A DNA stretch of 64,000 nucleotides from Escherichia phage UGJNEcP1: sequence record OV754623; one strand, 5' to 3'. The notes beneath the pieces were generated by a model that made no database searches, had not been told where the DNA came from, and saw only the letters and a program-made list of their open reading frames with translations. The translations under genes were made by a program, and so were the position numbers. Of this stretch, positions 4,427 through 63,642 are shown piece after piece (within the stretch, counting starts at the first letter, position 1; the number at the start of each line of letters is the position of its first letter).

Positions 4427-5595
4427 CAGTATTCCAACGTCCAGGATATCCTAACTTAAGCGTTAAATTATACCAAGATTATTCGGCTTGGCAAGAAAAT
4501 AGATACGTTGAACTCGCAGCAACAATAACAACTTTAACCATGCGAGATTCGCTATATGGAAGAAATGAAGGGATTCTTCAATTTTATGACACTAAAAACA
4601 TCCACACTAAAATGGACGGTAGACAGATAGTTCAAATCTCTGTTTCAAATTCAAACACACCTCTCCAAGTTAGAACTCGAATTTATGGATGTAGACATTA
4701 TTCTGTGTCTGTGGACTCAAAAGGTGACAATATTATTGCAATTGAGCTTGGAACAATACATTCTATAGAGAACCTTAAATTTGGGCGACCATTCTTCCCA
4801 GACGCAGGAGAATCTATACGTGAAATGTTAGGTGTCATATATAAAGACCGTACATTAATTACTCCGCCAATAAACACTATTAATGCTTATGTTCCTGATA
4901 TTCCTTGGACAAGCACATTTGATGATTATTTGGCATATGTCAGAGAATTAGGACTTGCTACAGCGAGTGATAAGTTCGTATTCGTATGGCAAGATATTTT
5001 AGGCGTAAACATGATTGACTACGATACTCTTATTGGTCAGGAAGGCATTAAGATGATTGTAGGCGAGCCAAATACCGTAGGTCAGTATATTCAAGAGCTT
5101 GAGTATCCATTAGTATGGGATTTCACCTGGATGACTAAAGCTAACCAATTTACAAGAGACCCTATTAAAAACGCCACGATATTCGCCCATTCATTTTTAG
5201 ATACATCTATTCCGGTTATTGTTACAGGCGATGGTGATAATGCTATTGTTGTGTCAAGATCTGGTGGATATTCCGAAATGACCTATCGTAATGGATTTGA
5301 AGAAGCAAGTCGTCTTCAGACAATGGCTCAATATGACGGATATGCTAAATGCACTACTACAGGTAATTTTAACATAACGCCTGCTACTAAAATTATATTT
5401 GTTGACCAAAAGAACCAATTCAAATCCGAATTTTACGTAGATGAAGTTATTCATGAGTTATCAAATAACAACTCACAAACTCATCTGTACATGTTTACCA
5501 ACTCAATGGTGTTAGAACCTGTTAACCCAGTTAAGGTTAAAAATGAACTTAAATCTGATTCTACCTCTAAAGAAAATAATTCTACCACAGTCTAA
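4423..5595 (+). CDS. 27: baseplate hub subunit gp27
   Basis: 390 aa (T4 gp27 391 aa); synteny 51-27-28-29. Confidence 0.85.
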
Positions 5596-17198: not shown

Positions 17199-17227
17199 AT
17201 AATAACATAACCTGTACCAAAGTAAAC
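17199..17227 (-). promoter_or_regulatory. T4 early-type promoter (GTTTAC-N17-TATTAT)
   Basis: Upstream of the ORF starting at 17157; -10 sits between inverted repeats GGTACAGGT / ACCTGTACC. Confidence 0.55.
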
Positions 17228-17231
17228 TGTT

Positions 17232-17600
17232 TTATGCAACTTTAATCCAATTGTCTAAATTTAAAACACCTTTGGCTTTCATTTTTTCGATCAGGTTATC
17301 TGCTGTAATGCGTCCATTTTGATACCATGTAACATCTTCAGAGTAACCAGTTTCTTCGTCAACATATGTTTCTGAACGAATTTTACCGGTAATAATAGTT
17401 TTTAATTCGTATGTGTCACCTGTGAAAAAGTTTGCTAACACAATTTTCCAAGAGAAATCATCTGAAGGACCTTCAGGGGTCATACAACCTACGAACTCAA
17501 ATTGCTCTTTGTATAACATCCACTGGAATTCTTTAATTTCGATAGCTTTATAACCATCGTGGTCTTTACATTTGATGTATGAGTTCAGATTGATTTTCAT
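17232..17600 (-). CDS. hypothetical protein
   Basis: ORF track; own early-type promoter at 17643..17671. Confidence 0.55.
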   Translation of the reverse strand: MKINLNSYIKCKDHDGYKAIEIKEFQWMLYKEQFEFVGCMTPEGPSDDFSWKIVLANFFTGDTYELKTIITGKIRSETYVDEETGYSEDVTWYQNGRITADNLIEKMKAKGVLNLDNWIKVA

Positions 17601-17642
17601 TTTGTTCTCCGGTTTGTTTTATCGATTAGGTGGTACAAGTCT

Positions 17643-17671
17643 ATAGTAACACATCCTACAGGAGAGTAAAC
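17643..17671 (-). promoter_or_regulatory. T4 early-type promoter (GTTTAC-N17-TACTAT)
   Basis: Upstream of the ORF starting at 17600. Confidence 0.55.
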
Positions 17672-17707
17672 ATCTTTTTAAACTTTTTCTGCCCTAAACG
17701 CACAAAA

Positions 17708-17725
17708 GGGAGACCGAAGTCTCCC
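17708..17725 (-). terminator. intrinsic terminator (GGGAGAC-UUCG-GUCUCCC plus U-run)
   Basis: 7-bp GC-rich stem, UUCG loop, TTTT downstream on the minus strand. Confidence 0.6.
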
Positions 17726-17730
17726 TAAAA

Positions 17731-18780: not shown

Positions 18781-18810
18781 CTTATTTCCTTGTTGTTTGA
18801 CGATAGATTA

Positions 18811-18836
18811 ATAATACCATACTATTCGTAAAGCAT
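18811..18836 (-). promoter_or_regulatory. MotA-dependent middle promoter for gene 31 (MotA box ATGCTTTA, 12 nt, TATTAT)
   Basis: TGCTT-containing MotA box about 12 nt upstream of a -10 hexamer. Confidence 0.5.
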
Positions 18837-18837
18837 A

Positions 18838-19146: not shown

Positions 19147-19717
19147 AAAAGTTTCGGATTTGTTCCCAATTCAGAGAACGAAGATTATTACGAGAGTACT
19201 GAATTACTTCAATACCAGCTTGTTTAAGAATGTCTGCCCAATTTTCAGGAGATCGGTCATATAATTCTGCATATACAACCTTTTTAATACCTGACTGTGT
19301 AATAGCTTTAGTGCAATCAGGACATGGAGAAAGTGTCGTATACAACGTAGCACCTTCAATAGAATTACCTTTACGAGCTGCAAACAAAATTGCATTCAGT
19401 TCCGCATGGATTTCGTTATTGGCAGACCATGCACTATGAGCAGCCCGATGTTCTTTAGCCAAAACAAAATTATCGGCCCGTCCAAATGCTGTAGTGCCTT
19501 CTTTATGCCCAGCAACGATGACTGGGATTGGTTTATTCTTCAACCAACCATTTTCAGATGCATGTTCGCAACAGTTAACGCCACCTGCAGGTGAACCGTT
19601 ATACCCAGTAGAAATAATGCGCCCATCTTTTTCAATGACTGCGCCAACTTTCCATGAACAACATTTTGATTCTTGAGAAATCAGATATGCAATCTGAAGG
19701 TATGTGCTAGCTTTCAT
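19136..19717 (-). CDS. cd: dCMP deaminase
   Basis: 193 aa as T4 Cd; zinc motifs HAE (HAELNAI) and PCxxC (SPCPDCTKAI). Confidence 0.9.
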   Translation of the reverse strand: MKASTYLQIAYLISQESKCCSWKVGAVIEKDGRIISTGYNGSPAGGVNCCEHASENGWLKNKPIPVIVAGHKEGTTAFGRADNFVLAKEHRAAHSAWSANNEIHAELNAILFAARKGNSIEGATLYTTLSPCPDCTKAITQSGIKKVVYAELYDRSPENWADILKQAGIEVIQYSRNNLRSLNWEQIRNFCGE

Positions 19718-20709
19718 TATTGAACCTTATTAATATAAGTTAACAGCTCTTTAGTTTGTTCCCAACTGATGCACGCATCGGTAACGGAAACGCCATAGGA
19801 CATATTATCAGAAATTTTTTGATTTCCTTCATGTAGGAATGATTCTATCATAATTCCTTTGACCAAATCATTAGCTGCTAAATTTTTACCAATACCAATT
19901 TGATTGCTATAATGCCCATCAGCGTTTGCATGGCTACAGTCAACCATTACATAATGATTCAGACCTACTGCCCTTGCTTTGTTAGAAGCTTCTTGAATAT
20001 CAGAAGAATGATAGTTCGGGCCGTTGGTCCCGCCACGCAATACGATATGCGTATTCTGATTACCTTCAGCTTCAACAATGCCTACAGTACCATCGACGTC
20101 CATACCCATATACCGATGAGGCCAGGCGGCACTATACATCGCGTCTGTAGCTACTTTAATAGAACCATTGGTTGCGTTCTTGAAGCCTACGCACATCGGT
20201 AGACCTGAAGCAATTTCACGATGTGTCTGACTTTCAGTCGTACGGGCGCCAATAGCAACCCATGAGAAAATACCAGAAAGATACTTAATCGTGAATGGGT
20301 CTAATACTTCAGTTGCTAATGGAAGTCCCATACGTAGAAGTTTACGACACAATGTTCGTGCAACTATAAGACCGTGGTTCATATCAAAACTTCCGTCAAG
20401 ATATGGATCATTTACAAGACCTTTCCAACCTACGGTAGTTCGAGGCTTTTCAAAATAAACGCGCATCACTAACAGAACATTAGGAAGACGAGTTTGAAGT
20501 TCAGCCAGACGTTTGCCGTATTCAACAGCAGCAATAGGGTCATGAATTGAACAAGGACCTACAACAATAAGTTTGCGTGGGTCTTCACCGTTCATAATCG
20601 AATTAACTTGTTCGCGATGAGAAGCCACTTGTGATGCGTAAGCTTCCGACAAAGGAATAATCTCAGCTAGTTCTTTTGGAGAAATAAGTTTTCCGACGAC
20701 AGGTAACAT
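19717..20709 (-). CDS. 3-deoxy-D-arabino-heptulosonate-7-phosphate (DAHP) synthase, class I (AroG/AroF/AroH type)
   Basis: 330 aa; GPCSIHDP, MRVYFEKPRTTVGWKGL, AIGARTTESQTHRE; putative metal ligands Cys (GPCS), His (CSHAN), Glu (IESFLHEG), Asp (TDACI), matching E. coli AroG as recalled. Confidence 0.85.
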   Translation of the reverse strand: MLPVVGKLISPKELAEIIPLSEAYASQVASHREQVNSIMNGEDPRKLIVVGPCSIHDPIAAVEYGKRLAELQTRLPNVLLVMRVYFEKPRTTVGWKGLVNDPYLDGSFDMNHGLIVARTLCRKLLRMGLPLATEVLDPFTIKYLSGIFSWVAIGARTTESQTHREIASGLPMCVGFKNATNGSIKVATDAMYSAAWPHRYMGMDVDGTVGIVEAEGNQNTHIVLRGGTNGPNYHSSDIQEASNKARAVGLNHYVMVDCSHANADGHYSNQIGIGKNLAANDLVKGIMIESFLHEGNQKISDNMSYGVSVTDACISWEQTKELLTYINKVQ

Positions 20710-20829
20710 AACAATCCTTAGGAGATATAAACAGATTCTGATTCAACAATACCTTTAACCGGATTAGACAGGCTAAGTTGGTAGTGCTTAGATTTATGAC
20801 CATTCTCGATAGTAATGAGATAGCTCTCA

Positions 20830-23220: not shown

Positions 23221-23250
23221 ATTATACTCTGCTCCTGAGAGTTTGTAAAC
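23221..23250 (-). promoter_or_regulatory. T4 early-type promoter (GTTTAC-N18-TATAAT)
   Basis: -10 flanked by inverted repeat AGGAGCAGAG / TGCTCCT; near copy of the ndd promoter at 52148..52177. Confidence 0.55.
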
Positions 23251-27451: not shown

Positions 27452-27505
27452 TATATTTTCTCACTTAGTTTTAACTCATCCATGAGTAAATTATAATCAA
27501 AAGAC

Positions 27506-30965: not shown

Positions 30966-31549
30966 TTATAAACGCTCTCAGTAATTTCGGTGAGTTCATC
31001 AATTCTGTAGTAATGAGATTCTACCATAGAACGTTGAAGCATAATATCCTGGACGAAATCTTTATCAAGTTGAACATCAGAATTAACACGACATTTCTTA
31101 ATGATTTTAGTCATCACGATTTCATCGGCATAAGGCAGTGCTTGTTTAAGTAGAGCAGGACCGCCAATAACAGATACATCAACATGTTCAGTAGAAAGTT
31201 TAAACGGTACATCAGTTGCAGGGCTAAACAGGTTAATTTCACCACCTGTTACCAAGGTAATAAATTCAGATTGGGTGATATAGAACCGTGCAAGTTCATC
31301 AGTTTTAGTCCTAGGCAGTTTTCTGGCCATATCAGTGACAACCACATGAGTACGATCTGGGAGTAAACGAGGTAATGATGCAAAAGTCTTAGCACCCATA
31401 ACCATTACAGTGTTTTTAGTGCGAGCAACAAAGTTACTCATATCTTGTTTGATATGCTTCCATGGAAGTCCATCACCTAATCCAAAAGCATATTCCAGTT
31501 TATCATCAACTGTTTTAGACGGGGCACATGCGAATACTAATTTAAGCAT
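30962..31549 (-). CDS. frd: dihydrofolate reductase
   Basis: 195 aa; resembles T4 DHFR (GLGDGLPW); ATGA overlap with td. Confidence 0.9.
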   Translation of the reverse strand: MLKLVFACAPSKTVDDKLEYAFGLGDGLPWKHIKQDMSNFVARTKNTVMVMGAKTFASLPRLLPDRTHVVVTDMARKLPRTKTDELARFYITQSEFITLVTGGEINLFSPATDVPFKLSTEHVDVSVIGGPALLKQALPYADEIVMTKIIKKCRVNSDVQLDKDFVQDIMLQRSMVESHYYRIDELTEITESVYK

Positions 31550-31790
31550 TTTTAAGTCCTTTAATAACTTTTTGGATTTGTGATTTAGATGAAACTAGTT
31601 CTGTCTGAATTTCAAAACCGTCAGTTTGGTCAAATGTTGTAACACAAACACGAGGTTTTGTTGTGTATCGCCCAGACAAATCAAATGCGTCACCAATGAA
31701 TTCGGCCAAATCCGGATGGTCTAAATTAACTGAAGTATAAACTTCATATCCGACATCAGCGCCTTGAGAGTATTCAACAACAACATTCAT
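31542..31790 (-). CDS. hypothetical protein (frd.1 position)
   Basis: ORF track. Confidence 0.5.
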   Translation of the reverse strand: MNVVVEYSQGADVGYEVYTSVNLDHPDLAEFIGDAFDLSGRYTTKPRVCVTTFDQTDGFEIQTELVSSKSQIQKVIKGLKNA

Positions 31791-31792
31791 AA

Positions 31793-32041
31793 TTATTTCC
31801 TCAGATTTTTCTTAACAACTTTCCAATCAGCTTTAAACTGATCGACGTCAGAATGATAAATCCAGAATCCTGCACTTTCACCATCTTCGTAGAGTGGACA
31901 TCCATCACATTCTTCGTTCCAACCCATTTCGCGTAAAGCTTCTTCAGCTTGTTCAAGGAGTTCGGCGTCTTTACCAACGATGTTGAAGTACCATTTACCT
32001 CTAACTTCAGAATCTTTGATGCTCTGGCGTTGCAATCTCAT
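31793..32041 (-). CDS. hypothetical protein (frd.2 position)
   Basis: ORF track; promoter-like element upstream. Confidence 0.5.
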   Translation of the reverse strand: MRLQRQSIKDSEVRGKWYFNIVGKDAELLEQAEEALREMGWNEECDGCPLYEDGESAGFWIYHSDVDQFKADWKVVKKNLRK

Positions 32042-32075: not shown

Positions 32076-32105
32076 ACTATAACATAGCCCTATCTGATTG
32101 TACAC
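32076..32105 (-). promoter_or_regulatory. early-type promoter variant (GTGTAC-N18-TATAGT)
   Basis: Palindrome TAGGGCTA...TAGCCCTA around the -10; homologous to the elements at 52409 and 52921. Confidence 0.4.
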
Positions 32106-32567: not shown

Positions 32568-32598
32568 AACTTTTTCGGCAATTTACAGATACTCAAAA

Positions 32599-32616
32599 GG
32601 GAGACCGAAGTCTCCC
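32599..32616 (-). terminator. intrinsic terminator after gene 32 (GGGAGAC-UUCG-GUCUCCC plus U-run)
   Basis: Identical hairpin to 17708..17725; TTTT follows on the minus strand. Confidence 0.6.
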
Positions 32617-32622
32617 GATTTA

Positions 32623-33525: not shown

Positions 33526-33612
33526 TATATTTACCTTTATTTAGATTATTTAATTTATTTACAGTTGGTTGCTACGACACTTATACCTCGTAGCTGGTAT
33601 GTTTTATTTATA
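33526..33612 (-). promoter_or_regulatory. gene 32 leader: A/U-rich translational operator, upstream hairpin, and TATAAATA late promoter (33605..33612)
   Basis: mRNA-sense leader AAAUAAAUUAAAUAAUCUAAAUAAAGGUAAAUAUA before the AUG; hairpin GCUACGA...UCGUAGC further upstream. Confidence 0.5.
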
Positions 33613-33641
33613 AAGTAATTTTAACACGCAAGAAATAAAGC

Positions 33642-34295
33642 TTAATACTTACATGATTTGATTGTTTCTATGAACAATTTCTTAGCAGCATTTCCATCGA
33701 TTTGAAGTATTTTTCGATATGCCTTTAATTTGGTAGAATAATTTTGCCAGACTAAATTGTCGGTAAGTTCGTCATGCTTATCTATAATATTCAAGAATGA
33801 ATCTAACAACAAGAAGGTTTCAAATGAAATTATATTGCTTTGTAGCAATTTAAATATGTAGCTCGACTGAACTTTATTATTATAATCAAATATCTCTTGA
33901 AGCGCACTAACTTCCACTTTCTTACTGAAATAGTAGATGTTACGTACGTCTTCAGCAAACGTCTCCTTGGCTTGTTTGAGACGTCCAATGTATTCCCTAT
34001 AGAAAACTAATGCATCAGCGTCTGATATCTCACCAATCCATGCGTCTTGGTTAGCAACTAAGTTGCTTATGAATATCAAGGTGAGTTCCTTCAATTTATA
34101 TTTCTCTGCTAGTTTTTCAAAGAAATATTTATCTCGGCGTTTTTGATACGCATTATCCGAAACACGCATGCACCAGTTATATTTGATTACGTCATACCGA
34201 CCACCAAAATGGTTTTTGCACATCAAGTATAGTTTATATACTGATTTTCCATTAATATAACGTTCTCCATCAGGAGGCATGCGTATTTTAATCAT
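33642..34295 (-). CDS. 59: helicase loader gp59
   Basis: 217 aa as T4 gp59; near-identical segments (DVIKYNWCMRVSD, AWIGEISDADALVFYREYIGRLKQ). Confidence 0.9.
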   Translation of the reverse strand: MIKIRMPPDGERYINGKSVYKLYLMCKNHFGGRYDVIKYNWCMRVSDNAYQKRRDKYFFEKLAEKYKLKELTLIFISNLVANQDAWIGEISDADALVFYREYIGRLKQAKETFAEDVRNIYYFSKKVEVSALQEIFDYNNKVQSSYIFKLLQSNIISFETFLLLDSFLNIIDKHDELTDNLVWQNYSTKLKAYRKILQIDGNAAKKLFIETIKSCKY

Positions 34296-34971
34296 ATTTC
34301 CATCCGGGCCATTTTGAAGATTTAAGTCTATATGTAACTAAAGACGCAGAAATATTAAAAACATTTGAAACTTCTTTACACGAGGCGTATTTTATACCAT
34401 CAATAGTTATAGGTTTTTGTTTTTTAATAGTCCTTTCTCTAGAATGTGGTTTTGAATTTGCTATTCTAAGAGCTTCTTTAGTGGAATCAGGCATCGCCTT
34501 ATTCGTTTTTCTCCCTTTTCGGACTTTACTCAAGGCCAATTTGTGAGCTTCAGATAGTTTCTTACCCTTATTAGGGGACGGTATTTTTCTTTCTAGTCTT
34601 GTTTTAGATACTTTAGCCTTAGTCTCTTCAGATCTAGGTTTACCTAATTTAGAAAGTGAAATGGCCCTTTTAGCTTCATCACTTTGTTTTTTGCCAGGAC
34701 CACCTTTACCACCGGGAACTAAGTTATAAGTATCATCTCGCAAAACAAAATCTTCATTAACCAATTCTGCTTCTTTTTTATAGGCGTCCTTGTCATTATC
34801 ATATTCATAAAGAATTTCGGTATAAAAATTTTTTAGTCCATATTTAGCTTTGGCCGCTAATATAGCGCGGCCTGATCCAATATACCAATCTTTCTCTTTA
34901 TGTTTTTTATGTACGCCTATATAAATTTTACCATTTATTTTATTGGTAGTTTTATACACAACGTATTTCAT
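34288..34971 (-). CDS. GIY-YIG homing endonuclease (Seg/I-TevI-like) with NUMOD3 repeats and C-terminal HTH
   Basis: N-terminal YVVYKTTNKINGKIYIGVHK GIY-YIG motif; repeated basic NUMOD-like motifs; C-terminal helix-turn-helix-like segment. Confidence 0.8.
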   Translation of the reverse strand: MKYVVYKTTNKINGKIYIGVHKKHKEKDWYIGSGRAILAAKAKYGLKNFYTEILYEYDNDKDAYKKEAELVNEDFVLRDDTYNLVPGGKGGPGKKQSDEAKRAISLSKLGKPRSEETKAKVSKTRLERKIPSPNKGKKLSEAHKLALSKVRKGRKTNKAMPDSTKEALRIANSKPHSRERTIKKQKPITIDGIKYASCKEVSNVFNISASLVTYRLKSSKWPGWKYD

Positions 34972-41598: not shown

Positions 41599-41616
41599 GG
41601 GAGACTTCGGTCTCCC
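41599..41616 (+). terminator. intrinsic terminator after gene 35 (GGGAGAC-UUCG-GUCUCCC plus U-run)
   Basis: Hairpin followed by ATTTTTG on the plus strand. Confidence 0.65.
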
Positions 41617-41623
41617 ATTTTTG

Positions 41624-48846: not shown

Positions 48847-49479
48847 TCACAGTACGTTAGTTACAAGAGTAATGATTTCTTTGGACACATTAGGGAAGTC
48901 AATGTAAGTATATTTACCACCGATCTTAATCTTAACATCATTTTCAAGAGAAGTAAACAGCTTTGATTCAGTTTCTGACATGTTGTATGCAAAGATTCTA
49001 AGAGCGCCATCTCGTCGAATTTCAATTTGGCGAATGCCTAGAACTCGTTTAGCGAATCGAACTTCTAAGTTACTACGGTTTTCACCAATTTCTTTAACTT
49101 CAACTTTATCTTTAATATTTTCAAAAACAAAGTTTGCTAATTCATGCATTTCAGGAGTAACTCCACGTGCTTTTCTAGTGTTACGTTTCTGAAGAAGTTC
49201 TGGAGCATTTTCTTGGGCAAAGAGGTCTGCAGCTTTTTGGATAATATCCATTGCTTCGCCTGTTGCTATAAGTCCATCACCAGATTTTTCGACTAAACCT
49301 TTCTTAATCAATACACCAATGTTAGAGTTAACAACCGATGCATTGTATTCAGCTTCCAGAGCTTCACGGACATTAGCAGCAGTGGTGAAGTTGTTCTTAA
49401 TGATATAAACCATTATTGCAGCAGTTTTTTCATTCAGAGCGTTTTCAGAAGCTTTGATGATGTAAGTAACTTTAGACAT
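48847..49479 (-). CDS. motA: middle-promoter transcription activator MotA
   Basis: ORF 48847..49539 trimmed to Met 21 (MSKVTYIIKAS...), 210 aa versus T4 MotA 211 aa; early-type promoter upstream. Confidence 0.85.
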   Translation of the reverse strand: MSKVTYIIKASENALNEKTAAIMVYIIKNNFTTAANVREALEAEYNASVVNSNIGVLIKKGLVEKSGDGLIATGEAMDIIQKAADLFAQENAPELLQKRNTRKARGVTPEMHELANFVFENIKDKVEVKEIGENRSNLEVRFAKRVLGIRQIEIRRDGALRIFAYNMSETESKLFTSLENDVKIKIGGKYTYIDFPNVSKEIITLVTNVL

Positions 49480-49584: not shown

Positions 49585-49800
49585 TTACAAACTCATTTCT
49601 TTAATAAGGCTAATAAGTTTTGCCTTTTTAGAACGAAGCTTTTCTAAATGATGCCCATTTGAACCGCGAACCACTAAAGAATTGATTTCAACTTCTAAGA
49701 AATTTAATTCTTCAACAAGTGCTTTACGGAGAGCATTCATACCAGGTTTAACTTTACCGAAACGAGTAGTTGTGTTTTGAGTTAATTTCATTTTAGACAT
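49585..49800 (-). CDS. hypothetical small protein expressed from a duplicated motA promoter-leader
   Basis: 71-aa ORF; its upstream 74 nt (promoter, leader, SD, first codons MSK) is a near copy of the motA upstream region. Confidence 0.5.
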   Translation of the reverse strand: MSKMKLTQNTTTRFGKVKPGMNALRKALVEELNFLEVEINSLVVRGSNGHHLEKLRSKKAKLISLIKEMSL

Positions 49801-49868: not shown

Positions 49869-49896
49869 TGTTTTCGTGAGAAAAAAATGCACAAAA

Positions 49897-49912
49897 GGGA
49901 GCTTCGGCTCCC
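49897..49912 (-). terminator. intrinsic terminator after gene 52 (GGGAGC-CGAA-GCUCCC plus U-run)
   Basis: Hairpin followed by TTTTGTG on the minus strand, upstream of the duplicated promoter. Confidence 0.55.
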
Positions 49913-52630: not shown

Positions 52631-52894
52631 TCATAGCTCAACTTCCGCCAGTTCCATATATCCTTTGTTGATAGTCTCTTTAAGGTCTTTAGAAAGAATG
52701 ACATTAAAATGGTCGTTCATATGTCCGTTAACTAAACGAGTTATTTCGGCTTCAGATGACATATAAGGCACGTCTGAGTCCCAATGAGATAGTCCCAAAT
52801 GGGTATAAATCATCCCTTCGTCATCTGCAGTGTTGTACATTGAAACAAATTCGCCTGTTACTTTATGTTTTGCGTAGAAAAATTTAAATTTCAT
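52631..52894 (-). CDS. hypothetical protein
   Basis: ORF track; promoter at 52921..52950. Confidence 0.45.
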   Translation of the reverse strand: MKFKFFYAKHKVTGEFVSMYNTADDEGMIYTHLGLSHWDSDVPYMSSEAEITRLVNGHMNDHFNVILSKDLKETINKGYMELAEVEL

Positions 52895-57168: not shown

Positions 57169-57260
57169 AATATTCTCTTCAGTAGATTCCTAGGGCACTA
57201 TTACTAAAGACCATATAATCTATCATCTTATGTGTAATAGTGCCTCAGGCTATTCAGGAT

Positions 57261-60221: not shown

Positions 60222-60270
60222 GTTGTCTCCTCGTTATGAAGGTATTCTATCATCCGAAATCTAAAGCAAA

Positions 60271-60286
60271 AAGGGCCGAAGCCCTT
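60271..60286 (-). terminator. intrinsic terminator (AAGGGC-UUCG-GCCCUU plus U-run)
   Basis: Hairpin followed by TTTTTGC on the minus strand, between gene 39 and the ORF at 60285..60728. Confidence 0.55.
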
Positions 60287-61550: not shown

Positions 61551-61578
61551 AATATTCTCCTCTTGTTTTGATAGGTCT

Positions 61579-62191: not shown

Positions 62192-62611
62192 TTATGCAAA
62201 AGATGCTGGACAATATTTTTTGATTTGGAACTCAGGAACTACCATGAACTGACCAGCAAAAACAATGTTATAAAGCTTGACGCCATCTTCAACCCATTGG
62301 TCACTGATGAACCCAGCGACTTGATTCGTTGTCCACGGTGTTCCGTCTGTCGCAGAGGCAATGGTGAACTTGTGGTCTTTTACAACTAAAACCGATCTGC
62401 ACAGTTTCCATTTGAACGCTTTTTCTTCCGGTTCAATGAATTGGCTTTTAACGTAACCAATGTTACCATCGGCGTCACGAACTTTAATTTCGTTACGTCC
62501 AAAAACAGGATCACTCACATAAAGAACTTCAACCAACTTCCCGGCAACTTTAGAGCGAGAAGCATCCGATACGTGTACATAATCACCAATAGAGAGATTT
62601 GCAATATTCAT
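62192..62611 (-). CDS. paralogue A of a tandem family (KOW-like N-terminus, DQWVEDG C-terminal motif)
   Basis: C-terminus GFISDQWVEDGVKLYNIVFAGQF shared with the next two genes; N-terminus SIGDYVHVSDASRSKVAGKLVEV shared with paralogue B. Confidence 0.55.
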   Translation of the reverse strand: MNIANLSIGDYVHVSDASRSKVAGKLVEVLYVSDPVFGRNEIKVRDADGNIGYVKSQFIEPEEKAFKWKLCRSVLVVKDHKFTIASATDGTPWTTNQVAGFISDQWVEDGVKLYNIVFAGQFMVVPEFQIKKYCPASFA

Positions 62612-62620
62612 AATAATTCC

Positions 62621-63085
62621 TTAAGCTTTACGAGGAGACACATAGCGAGTGATTTCAGATTCTTCAACAACTCGGAAGTCACCTAAGAATACAATATTGT
62701 ATAGCTTTTTACCATCTTCAACCCATTGGTCGCTGATGAAGCCGCACATAGTATCAGTTTTGCTTGGATAACCGTATTCGTCGATGTAATCAAATTCTTT
62801 ATCGGTTATAAATTCAACGCCTTTGCAAAGGGCCCATTTGAACTGTGTAGTAGGCTCAACGATATCGCTTGAAGCAAATTGGACTCGTATATGTTTTTCC
62901 AGGAATTTAGGACTTACGTAAGCATACTGGGCATCTTGTCCGCCAAAACTCGGGATGATTCGAACTTTAACTTCTTTAACACGTCCCATGCCGTTAGTAC
63001 GAAGCCCTGCTACTTCAACCAGACGACCTGCAGCTTTAGAACGAGAAGCAGGAGATACACGAAGGATTTCACCAATAGTAATCAT
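62621..63085 (-). CDS. paralogue B of the tandem family
   Basis: ORF 62621..63148 trimmed to Met 22 (track start lies in the promoter); GFISDQWVEDGKKLYNIVFLGDF. Confidence 0.55.
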   Translation of the reverse strand: MITIGEILRVSPASRSKAAGRLVEVAGLRTNGMGRVKEVKVRIIPSFGGQDAQYAYVSPKFLEKHIRVQFASSDIVEPTTQFKWALCKGVEFITDKEFDYIDEYGYPSKTDTMCGFISDQWVEDGKKLYNIVFLGDFRVVEESEITRYVSPRKA

Positions 63086-63115
63086 AATTTCTCTCTCTTT
63101 GTTTAAATTGAATTC

Positions 63116-63145
63116 ACTATACTCCATCCATCCTTGGATGTACAA
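63116..63145 (-). promoter_or_regulatory. early-type promoter variant (TTGTAC-N18-TATAGT)
   Basis: Upstream of paralogue B (start 63085); spacer CCAAGGATGG. Confidence 0.45.
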
Positions 63146-63147
63146 CA

Positions 63148-63642
63148 TTAATTAAGGATATTAACCACAGCACTACGTGGAACAACACTAAAATCACCAG
63201 CATGAACAACGTTAATAAGTTCAACACCATCTTCAATCCACTGGTCAGTTACCCATCCACTCACTGGACCTGCGAACGGACGTCGAATTGAAACGGCTTT
63301 ACACAACAAATCAGTAGGCTCAATAGGCTTAATCAGAGTACCGTACATACAAGCGATGTCCATATCAAAGTGGAGACCATCTTTAACAGGTGCTTCTTCA
63401 ATCAACAGTTCAAAGTCTGTGCTTGGAAGGGCGGTAGTAGAAATTGTACCGTATGAATTTTTAATTTCTAAGAATAACCAAGGGCCTTCAGCTTGTTTGA
63501 TGAAGTTAACAATAGTGAAACTATTACCTTGAGTGGCACCTAAAATTTCACAAAACTTTTCATAAGCTCGCACTGAAGCACCGTACCAATTGATTTGTTT
63601 TTCGTCTTTCAGGATGTAAGTAGCCGTAGTATTGATATTCAT
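63148..63642 (-). CDS. paralogue C of the tandem family (C-terminal domain only shared)
   Basis: C-terminus GWVTDQWIEDGVELINVVHAGDF; own promoter and AGGAAA SD. Confidence 0.55.
   Translation of the reverse strand: MNINTTATYILKDEKQINWYGASVRAYEKFCEILGATQGNSFTIVNFIKQAEGPWLFLEIKNSYGTISTTALPSTDFELLIEEAPVKDGLHFDMDIACMYGTLIKPIEPTDLLCKAVSIRRPFAGPVSGWVTDQWIEDGVELINVVHAGDFSVVPRSAVVNILN

Follow-up and report, generated by a model that had tools for sequence, protein, structure and literature searches.

Early promoters with embedded inverted repeats in the RB69-like Escherichia phage UGJNEcP1, and their relation to promoter early stem-loop cassettes

Between positions 17,199 and 17,671 of the 64,000-nucleotide stretch analysed here (Escherichia phage UGJNEcP1, sequence record OV754623; hereafter the window), two early promoters on the minus strand raise the question of why a promoter should contain an inverted repeat and what purpose this repeat might serve. 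The first, P03 (17186-17227, GTTTAC-17-TATTAT, upstream of the homologue of gene 30.7), carries a 12-bp hairpin (TTGGTACAGGTT/GACCTGTACCAA; -19.5 kcal/mol, z -3.15) around its -10 element. The second, P04 (17643-17671, GTTTAC-17-TACTAT, upstream of the 30.8 homologue), possesses no strong embedded hairpin. An earlier note on this DNA had assigned such elements to the promoter early stem-loop (PeSL) cassettes, which have been proposed to shuffle small open reading frames (ORFs) in T4-type genomes. The analysis of 21 promoters in the window supports this assignment: by their sequence, the cassettes are PeSLs, a known kind of element, in a phage group (RB69-like) in which they had not been catalogued before. 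It is probable that the hairpin is selected in RNA that reads through the promoter, where it would serve at the end of the upstream message, and that the cassettes also act as repeats in the shuffling of small ORFs.

A 10-kb slice of the window matched Escherichia phage UGJNEcP2 (OV877511.1; Straboviridae, Tevenvirinae, Mosigvirus, RB69-like) at 100 % and many RB69-like coliphages with 97-98 % identity; matches to this region come from roughly 150 Mosigvirus and 600 Tequatrovirus genomes. The window corresponds to positions 6923-70922 of the record, is nearly colinear with RB69 and spans, in T4 terms, the region from uvsW to dexA. Its minus strand encodes early and middle genes (alt, 30, 31, cd, pseT, alc, rnlA, nrd, td, frd, 32, 59, rnh, asiA, motA, 52, ndd, denB, rII, 39, cef and motB), and its plus strand late tail-fibre genes.

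Early promoters and their inverted repeats

The pattern GTTTAC-N16-19-TANNAT occurs 15 times in the window, always on the minus strand, compared to an expectation of 1.23 and at most 5 matches in any of 100 shuffles. Fourteen of these matches lie upstream of genes; the remaining one, at 48929, lies inside motA. If -35 elements with one mismatch (GTGTAC, TTGTAC, ATGTAC, GTTTAT) and the -10 element TATAGT are allowed, 21 T4-type early promoters are obtained (P01-P21, all on the minus strand), each with a spacer of 17-19 nt and followed by an A-rich leader, a Shine-Dalgarno (SD) sequence and ATG. The number of at least 20 promoters given in the earlier note is thus reached with the variants, whereas its exact GTTTAC/TAnnAT pattern yields 15; the enrichment over background that it had asked to be checked was found. 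This enrichment is specific to the T4-type pattern, as a scan of the window with a generic sigma-70 consensus gave no enrichment (75 matches versus 66±8 expected).

In the position matrix of the 21 promoters, an A-tract (-43 to -39), the -35 element, G-20 (17/21), TG at -15/-14 (16/21) and the -10 element are followed by A-6, C-3, C-2, T-1, A+1 and T+2. The 22 nt upstream of the -35 consist of 74 % AT (A 42 %), compared to 62 % (A 32 %) window-wide, and in 14 promoters the stop codon of the upstream gene overlaps the -35 or is located at most 13 nt from it (e.g. TAGTTTAC). In 20 of the 21 cases, 24-44 nt of leader separate the -10 from the annotated ATG, with an SD of the GAGG/GGAG type. When T4 was run through the same pipeline, the start of the cd.2/cd.3 promoter was predicted at 133295, and the T4 record names this promoter Pe133295, which places the start site at the seventh nucleotide after the -10. 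RB69 orthologues were found for P01, P03 and P05-P08. The cassettes precede small uncharacterised ORFs (30.7, 30.8, ORF71) as well as conserved early genes (alc, rnlA, motA, ndd, rnh).

The complementarity of the two sides of the -10 element was assessed by pairing the 17-18 nt spacer with the sequence that follows the -10, and by comparing these two arms with arms exchanged between promoters. For a promoter's own arms, duplex energies in the window averaged -9.0 kcal/mol, as opposed to -6.0 kcal/mol for exchanged arms (0/5000 permutations, p<0.0002), and 74 non-redundant promoters of relatives, taken from T4-like loci in IMG/VR, gave -9.9 versus -6.5 kcal/mol (z=-13). Stems of at least 5 bp within the spacer itself are present in 8 of the 21 promoters, compared to 5.8 % of background 22-mers (p=1e-5). 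The inverted repeats that had been described as embedding the -10 element therefore clearly exceed chance. A stem is embedded in 14 of the 21 promoters, and three more have a stand-alone stem upstream; for eight cassettes, ViennaRNA folds gave z-scores from -2.1 to -5.9 against dinucleotide shuffles.

Three layouts can be distinguished. Where the stem lies within the spacer, it is usually closed over a GGA-containing loop. This is the case for P08 (25810-25839, upstream of rnlA; 8 bp, TACCACAA-gga-TTGTGGTA), and also for P07 (24627-24656, upstream of alc; AACACC-aaggaa-GGTGTT), P20 (63116-63145, TTGTAC-18-TATAGT; CATCCA-agga-TGGATG), P21 (63674-63703; CAACCA-agga-TGGTTG) and P01 (10276-10310, GTTTAC-18-TACTAT, upstream of the alt.-3 homologue; spacer stem ACACA/TGTGT, with GGATG/CATCC as an alternative bracket).

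In the bracket layout, 4 nt separate the 5' arm from the -10, the 3' arm follows the -10 directly, and the loop consists of TGn and the -10. Such stems, of 6-12 bp, were found at P03, P05, P06, P09 and P15-P17. P05 (21085-21124), by orthology the counterpart of T4 Pe133295, precedes the cd.2 homologue and has a 10-bp bracket with one G·U pair (TGGTGGAGTT/AACTCTACCA; z -3.43), while P09 (32067-32105, GTGTAC-18-TATAGT, upstream of frd.1) has one of 9 bp (GATAGGGCT/AGCCCTATC; z -5.16). P06 (23215-23250, GTTTAC-18-TATAAT) combines the bracket AGGAGC/GCTCCT with a spacer stem ACTCT/AGAGT and belongs to the family termed A below. P15 (52141-52177, TTGTAC-18-TATAAT, upstream of ndd) shows compensatory changes in comparison to P06 in its bracket TGAGAGC/GCTCTCA. 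P16 (52400-52438; GGTAGGATT/AGTCCTACT) contains two G·U pairs, and P17 (52913-52950; GTAGGACT/AGTCCTAT) precedes a small hypothetical ORF (52631-52894) in the denB region. At P18 (61574-61608, ATGTAC-18-TACTAT, upstream of cef) the stem GGTCTAT/ATAGACC overlaps the -10.

In the third layout the 3' arm comprises the SD. The strongest case in the window is P19 (62137-62187), whose 13-bp hairpin (TTCTCCTCTGGTT/AACCAGAGGAGAA; -23.9 kcal/mol, z -5.89) has the SD of the downstream gene (GAGGAG) in its 3' arm. The class census counted 6 bracket and 4 SD-pairing promoters (only P19 strong) among the 21 of the window, and 19 bracket and 18 SD-pairing promoters among the 74 of the relatives. All three layouts also occur at the early promoters of T4 itself, with SD pairing at Pe136300 and Pe166771. 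Hairpins are weak or lacking at P02 (16112-16142, GTTTAT-19-TATAAT, within a segment replaced in RB69), which has a 4-bp ATCC/GGAT spacer stem only, at P12 (47005-47034, asiA region; bulged bracket GATAATGG/CCATATC), and at P10 (32539-32567, upstream of frd.2) and P11 (36511-36540, upstream of rnh), neither of which has an embedded hairpin. P11 is the first promoter of its transcription unit and lies in the divergent region facing gene 34.

An independent repeat search confirmed that the cassettes are related to one another. The repeat families D1, D2, D7, D8, D10 and D14 all proved to be promoter cassettes of 30-83 nt with 60-93 % identity, and these families rank among the largest dispersed repeats of the window. 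The near copies named in the earlier note were recovered at 23221 and 52148 (25 of 30 positions identical; 83 % over 46 nt) and as one family at 32076, 52409 and 52921, and all coordinates given there hold. Two of its groupings had to be narrowed: the heptamer CCAAGGA is exact at four of the five sites listed, whereas 25810 has CACAAGGA instead, and the leader TATAGACCTATCAAAACAAGAGGAG, described as shared, occurs exactly only once, at 61557, as the leader of P18, while related leaders (AGACCTATCAA...) do recur.

Covariation, strand bias and the possible role of the hairpin

If the pairing itself were under selection, the arms should change together. A gapless alignment of 76 promoters, unselected and scored in a single bracket register, had 48.7 % of its cells paired compared to 43.7 % after column shuffling. 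The covariation score was 0.236 versus 0.172; none of 500 shuffles was as high, and every slid register scored lower. Family A was defined solely by its AGAG-TATAAT context; its 11 distinct sequences come from three genomic sites in five phage groups. Here, 93.5 % of the bracket helix is paired and four of the seven pairs change on both sides (0/500), with arm pairs such as AGGAGC/GCTCCT, GAGAGC/GCTCTC, GGGACC/GGTCCT and GAGGAC/GTCCTC. At the site orthologous to P05, anchored in relatives by the upstream gene end AGCAATTTAA, some phages have a bracket (GGTGGAGTT/AACTCTACC, GGTAGAGTT/AGCTCTACC or (C/T)GGTAGGACT/AGTCCTACC(G/A)) and others a spacer stem CACCA-NGGA-TGGTG; on this comparison, the hairpin is kept at the site and its placement is not. 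An H-type pseudoknot in family A, formed by ACTCT/AGAGT together with the bracket, was also considered and rejected, as the first helix offers a single compensatory case and no nucleotides are left for the connecting loop.

The two strands are not equivalent. In the real helices, internal G·U and A·C pairs occur in a ratio of 20:9, compared to 293:497 (37 % G·U) in chance helices from the same arms (binomial p=5e-4), and the sense strand folds better than the antisense strand (paired p=0.001). This bias points to RNA made from the sense strand and would be unexpected for duplex DNA or a protein site. Together with the compensatory changes it indicates that the pairing is selected as a hairpin of sense-strand RNA. 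Bracket and spacer stems lie wholly upstream of the promoter's own start, as does the 5' arm in every layout, and the hairpin can therefore form only in RNA that reads through from upstream.

These observations are combined in the following model. The cassette begins with the stop codon of the upstream gene in an A-rich, UP-like tract, followed by the -35 (GTTTAC or nTGTAC), a spacer of 17-18 nt usually with TGn, the -10 (TAyTAT or TATAAT), an A-rich leader of 24-44 nt, the SD and the ATG. As their catalogued T4 orthologues suggest, these promoters would be used by host sigma-70 RNA polymerase straight after infection, with a start about 7 nt after the -10. The 5' arm of the inverted repeat lies in the spacer and the 3' arm in the spacer, directly after the -10 (-6 to +3) or on the SD. 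In read-through RNA, the hairpin would be the end-of-message structure of the upstream cistron and block 3' exonucleases after cleavage in the A-rich leader or SD; it might also act as a weak attenuator. In T4, RegB and RNase E act in the leader and SD, and secondary structure blocks RegB (PMC3014915). Where the hairpin pairs with the SD, it would silence translation of the downstream gene on read-through RNA, and this gene would then depend on its own promoter. The simplest reading of the arrangement is one hairpin per junction, which would sit inside the promoter if the stop codon directly adjoins the -35. The cassettes, 50-85 nt in length, would in addition provide homology for a recombination that adds or removes a small ORF together with its own promoter, the outcome of which can be seen at two sites.

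The distribution of hairpins over the junctions agrees with this model. Among the relatives, only 2 of 12 promoters with a stand-alone hairpin upstream also have an embedded one, compared to 35 of 57 without (Fisher p=0.009), and junctions without a promoter carry GC-rich UUCG hairpins. In a census scored against mononucleotide shuffles, the intergenic regions of the early strand had a mean fold z of -2.1, whether a promoter was present or not. The figures for the relatives suggest one hairpin per junction. A promoter-less intergenic region at 57169-57260 (-) has one of the strongest folds of the regions scored, an 11-bp stem GGCACTATTAC/GTAATAGTGCC closing a 31-nt loop (z -5.3; the region of P19 reaches z -6.9).

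The authors of the PeSL concept regarded the stems as terminators or attenuators that isolate each cassette. This is a serious rival, which we hold to be possible rather than probable. The stem-loop of PeSL211/210 from phi1 and RB49 lowered lacZ expression about as much as the rrnB T1 terminator (Arbiol et al. 2010, PMC2839356), and in relatives embedded and stand-alone terminator-type hairpins replace each other. In the window, however, the embedded stems all lack a downstream U-tract (their tails are CAAAUAAAAG, CAACAAAC or CUAAAAG) and are therefore not canonical intrinsic terminators; a terminator scan detected only the stand-alone GC-rich hairpins. The stems are furthermore AT-richer and weaker than the polyG/polyC stems of RB49, and delayed-early expression in T4 needs read-through of such junctions (PMC2988021). 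An action of the inverted repeats as DNA, as cruciform or single-strand hairpin hot spots of recombination or as targets of recombination proteins, with the RNA hairpin as an incidental product, appears unlikely. The PeSL authors did speculate that a DNA-binding protein targets the stem-loop, and one RB49 crossover was mapped to a loop. The T4 record states that the 14-nt loop of the Pe133295 hairpin had formerly been given in inverted-complement form, and the loop of the gene 52 terminator reads UUCG in one relative (L011) and CGAA in the window and RB69. Stems of 5-9 bp that are rich in AT extrude poorly as cruciforms, though, the strand asymmetry in G·U pairs and folding described above is unexpected for DNA, and the two indel junctions that could be mapped fall outside the stem, in the leader and the upstream flank.

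That the symmetry has no function of its own is still less likely. It would then be a by-product of a self-complementary consensus and of templated quasi-palindrome mutation, a process familiar from T4. Complementarity does exist between the consensus positions T-17/A-6, G-20/C-3, G-21/C-2 and A-22/T-1, and the pairing left in shuffled columns reflects this. The promoter-specific pairing is nevertheless far above the effect of the consensus (the z of -13 among relatives), stems persist across genera despite changed sequence and placement, they are depleted where a stand-alone hairpin is present, and the G·U bias remains. The earlier note had suggested that the palindromes may be regulator binding sites. 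Least probable of all is the idea that they are operators of a dimeric phage or host regulator, for example of a factor that shuts off the early promoters. In its favour, T4 early promoters are shut off in a way that has found no explanation (PMC2988021, PMC3014915), the repeats and the core promoter overlap, and a GGA is often present close to -20. Operator arms would hardly be wholly different between promoters and covary, and here the symmetry centre moves from about -22 in spacer stems to about -11 in bracket stems, the loops (AGGA) are asymmetric, and G·U pairs are tolerated on one strand only.

Several points weigh against a role of the hairpins at the end of read-through messages and of the cassettes in shuffling, although we consider both probable. 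Seven of the 21 promoters in the window have no convincing embedded hairpin, and P19 is the single strong SD-pairing case there. The preference for one hairpin per junction is not significant in the window alone (p=0.25, three cases). As columns still pair at 43.7 % after shuffling, part of the pairing signal comes from the self-complementary promoter consensus, and the promoters compared are related, so that the counts of G·U pairs and of covariation are not fully independent. The missing U-tracts also conflict with the terminator or attenuator role that was proposed together with the PeSL concept, cassette repeats are found at the junctions of only two of about eight indels in comparison to RB69, and all functional steps of the model are deduced from sequence.

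A wider reading can be put forward tentatively. The conserved GG near -21/-20, the CC near -3/-2 and the GT-rich stretch before the -10 might largely be arms of RNA hairpins selected in read-through transcripts and not contacts of the polymerase. Each early junction would then possess one insulating hairpin, standing alone if there is room and otherwise placed inside the promoter, and in a sizeable subclass this hairpin would hide the SD, so that the early gene is translated only from its own transcript. If true, a principle known from a few late-promoter cases in T4 (e, soc, 49 and I-TevI) would hold generally for the early genes of T4-like phages, T4 included.

Relation to known cassettes and the exchange of small reading frames

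According to Arbiol et al. 2010 (PMC2839356), a PeSL consists of a stop codon in an AT-rich tract, an early promoter of the sigma-70 type with a stem-loop, an SD and an ATG. Five subclasses of stems were distinguished by position: between -35 and -10, overlapping -35 or -10, within the AT-rich tract upstream, or shortly before the start. Of these, the first two are the commonest, and G-T pairs were highlighted. All sequence-level features of this definition were found in the window. Embedded hairpins were at one stage taken for a departure from PeSLs, with stems supposed to lie only upstream of the promoter; this was discarded, since embedded positions are the commonest in that paper. The term 'RB69' does not occur in it.

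The cassettes share with the PeSLs of RB49 and phi1 the layout, the G-T pairs in the stems and the nature of a dispersed repeat family. In both groups, moreover, one phage can have a small ORF between two cassettes where a close relative has just one cassette. The promoters of RB49 and phi1, in contrast, are near-perfect TTGACA-N17-TATAAT with polyG/polyC stems, as opposed to GTTTAC or nTGTAC with AT-richer, variable stems here. Terminator activity and mini-circles were shown by experiment in that system, while the cassettes of the window are known from their sequence. For PST and T4, Comeau et al. 2014 (PMC4122927) gave the promoter TTTACW-N17-TAYWAT and the stem 'AGNA-loop-TCNT', which fits the pairing of A-22, G-21, G-20 and A-19 with C-3, C-2 and T-1 observed here; T4 also shows the same hairpins under our pipeline. 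A figure legend of that paper places the stems 'just upstream of the promoter', whereas most of those described here lie inside it. RB69-like phages are outside the coverage of the accessible part of its text, which contains no covariation or strand-bias analysis.

The early promoters of T4 and RB69 as previously described (PMC1524935, PMC2988021) resemble those of the window in the UP-like A-tract, GTTTAC, TGn, the -10 and the C-rich positions -3 to -1. Nolan et al. 2006 (PMC1524935) predicted 57 early promoters in the RB69 genome. In this work and in the review by Hinton 2010 (PMC2988021), the additional conserved positions were treated as contacts of RNA polymerase, and neither text mentions symmetry, palindromes or stems at early promoters. 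In the open literature we found no usable earlier report of dyad symmetry in T4 early promoters, nor maps of 3' ends or start sites of T4.

A promoter inside a hairpin is also known from the translational control of T4 e, soc, 49 and I-TevI, where late promoters (TATAAATA) delay translation (reviewed in PMC3014915). P19 and the 18 of 74 promoters in relatives resemble these genes in that the 3' arm holds the SD and the proximal start site comes after the 5' arm, so that the ribosome binding site would be exposed in the proximal transcript only. The embedded promoter is early here and late there, however, and most cassettes of the window have no SD pairing. On the basis of this comparison, the cassettes would work like this family and are not members of it.

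The most similar cassettes of the window provide the clearest example of an exchange. P13 (49471-49553, comprising the motA promoter, the leader and the first codons) and P14 (49792-49874) are the two copies of repeat D8, 83 nt in length, 93 % identical and 321 nt apart, and they enclose the small ORF71 (49585-49800, -). RB69 and L011 have no ORF71 and only a single cassette in the slot between gene 52 and motA, and in L011 this cassette is chimeric, with the upstream flank of the P14 type and the leader of the P13 type. Across relatives this interval measures 192-1363 bp and contains one to three early promoters and unrelated small ORFs. The second case concerns frd.2. In RB69, RB69ORF245c sits between the promoter and frd.2 and is flanked by a repeated ATCAACAA(A/C)ATGAGGAAA leader/SD segment; in the window, P10, whose leader/SD segment equals this repeat, is located directly upstream of frd.2 without the ORF. 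Both junctions lie in the leader and upstream flank, outside the stem.

The signature of the small-ORF shuffling that had been proposed for these elements is thus present at the ORF71 and RB69ORF245c junctions but not at the other indels in comparison to RB69. No cassette was found at the edges of the aroF insertion, the tandem duplicate of frd.1, the homing endonuclease gene and two short intergenic indels. Cassette recombination, as far as the alignments indicate, accounts for part of the plasticity and not for all of it. The leader of P04 contains a copy of the P03-type 3' arm (AGACTTGTACC) with no matching 5' arm in the P04 spacer, an arrangement that a crossover in the -10 region, splitting the arms of a bracket hairpin, would produce; in the relative L006 the counterparts of both promoters have paired arms.

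Cassettes of a promoter plus a hairpin were already known from RB49/phi1, PST/T4 and nt-1/KVP40, and the RB69-like phage examined here has the same organisation of its early genes, with two gains or losses of small ORFs that can be traced to cassettes. The covariation, the strand bias and the apparent pattern of one hairpin per junction are, in the open literature searched, unreported additions. The compensatory changes and the restriction of G·U pairs to the sense strand identify the stem as a likely RNA feature of read-through transcripts and narrow the role of the 'SL' in PeSL. As the same architecture is present at catalogued T4 early promoters, stabilising, attenuating or silencing roles can be addressed in the best-studied phage of the group. 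For phage engineering, the cassettes could represent safe points for insertions and deletions and self-contained expression units.

Stand-alone stems and neighbouring regions

The hairpin GGGAGACTTCGGTCTCCC had been noted at three places, and it is indeed exact at 17708 (-), 32599 (-) and 41599 (+), with 0 copies expected. The stems have 7-8 bp with five G-C pairs, and the tails are TTTTG, TTTTG and ATTTTTG. All three copies of GGGAGAC-UUCG-GUCUCCC look like ordinary terminators, a type frequent in T4-type genomes, as far as their sequence indicates. The terminator scan listed the copy at 32599-32616 and missed that at 17708, as one additional A-T pair shifts the tail window. Only two copies belong to cassettes, namely T1 (17703-17726, -; 31 nt upstream of the -35 of P04, stand-alone and of the terminator type) and T2 (32594-32617, -; upstream of P10), both followed by UUUUG. 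The third (41599-41623, +), followed by AUUUUUG, is located on the late strand between genes 35 and 36 and has no early promoter. With T3 (49892-49912, -; GGGAGC-CGAA-GCUCCC followed by UUUUG), downstream of gene 52 and upstream of P14, T1 and T2 are the only stand-alone stems attached to cassettes. About ten other GC-rich UUCG hairpins are intergenic on the transcribed strand, several of them followed by U-runs. Hairpins with C(UUCG)G tetraloops in intercistronic regions of T4 were reportedly described by Tuerk et al. in 1988. The stems of the window resemble these and other intrinsic terminators of T4 as GC-rich UUCG stems between genes; they differ from the embedded hairpins in that they stand alone outside the promoter.

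An inversion comes into question at two of the hairpins. In the gene 52 terminator, the loop is CGAA in the window and RB69 and UUCG in L011 (14798-14825) on identical stems (GGGAGC/GCUCCC). As CGAA is the exact reverse complement of UUCG and the stems are unchanged, the whole hairpin appears inverted. In the T4 record (NC_000866), 14 nt at 133300-133313 (5301-5314 of the T4 locus L063) in the orthologue of P05 are annotated as 'inverted complement of previously reported sequence; corrects the early promoter Pe133295'. These are exactly the loop TTGTGATATTATAG, which holds the -10, between the bracket arms GGTAGAG/CTCTACC; the flipped loop would read CTATAATATCACAA and contain TATAAT. Either the earlier sequencing was wrong or the loop truly flips between the inverted repeats.

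In the interval between nrdA and nrdB (27452-27505, -), a promoter-like frame with a degenerate -10 (ATTTAC-TCATGGATGAGTTAAAAC-TAAGTG) carries the palindrome ACTCAT-GG-ATGAGT. It may be a decayed cassette comparable to the 'half PeSL' of Comeau et al. 2014 (PMC4122927). A scan of the whole window against Rfam at gathering thresholds returned no known RNA family.

Of the larger differences to RB69, an insertion of about 1.1 kb at 19717-20829 places an aroF-like gene for a DAHP synthase between cd.2 and cd. It is common to many other RB69-like phages, and neither edge has an early-promoter cassette. At 31542-32041, two adjoining ORFs of 82 amino acids replace the single frd.1 of RB69; the additional 239 nt look like a tandem duplication of frd.1 in which no cassette was involved. 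A homing-endonuclease gene (227 amino acids; 34288-34971) lies between genes 59 and 33 and is not present at this place in RB69, the insertion measuring 671 nt. At 62192-63642 (-), three paralogous ORFs, two annotated as motB-like and the third as hypothetical, are arranged in tandem with repeated coding segments (repeat families D3 and D13). P21 is located upstream of this cluster, P20 upstream of its middle copy and P19 directly downstream of the cluster.

Middle promoters with MotA boxes, distinct from the early cassettes, occur on the minus strand at 18781-18837, 33526-33641 and 60222-60284 (e.g. ATGCTTTAC-N11-TATTAT and TTGCTTTAG-N12-TAGAAT), and late TATAAATA motifs are present in several intergenic regions of the window.

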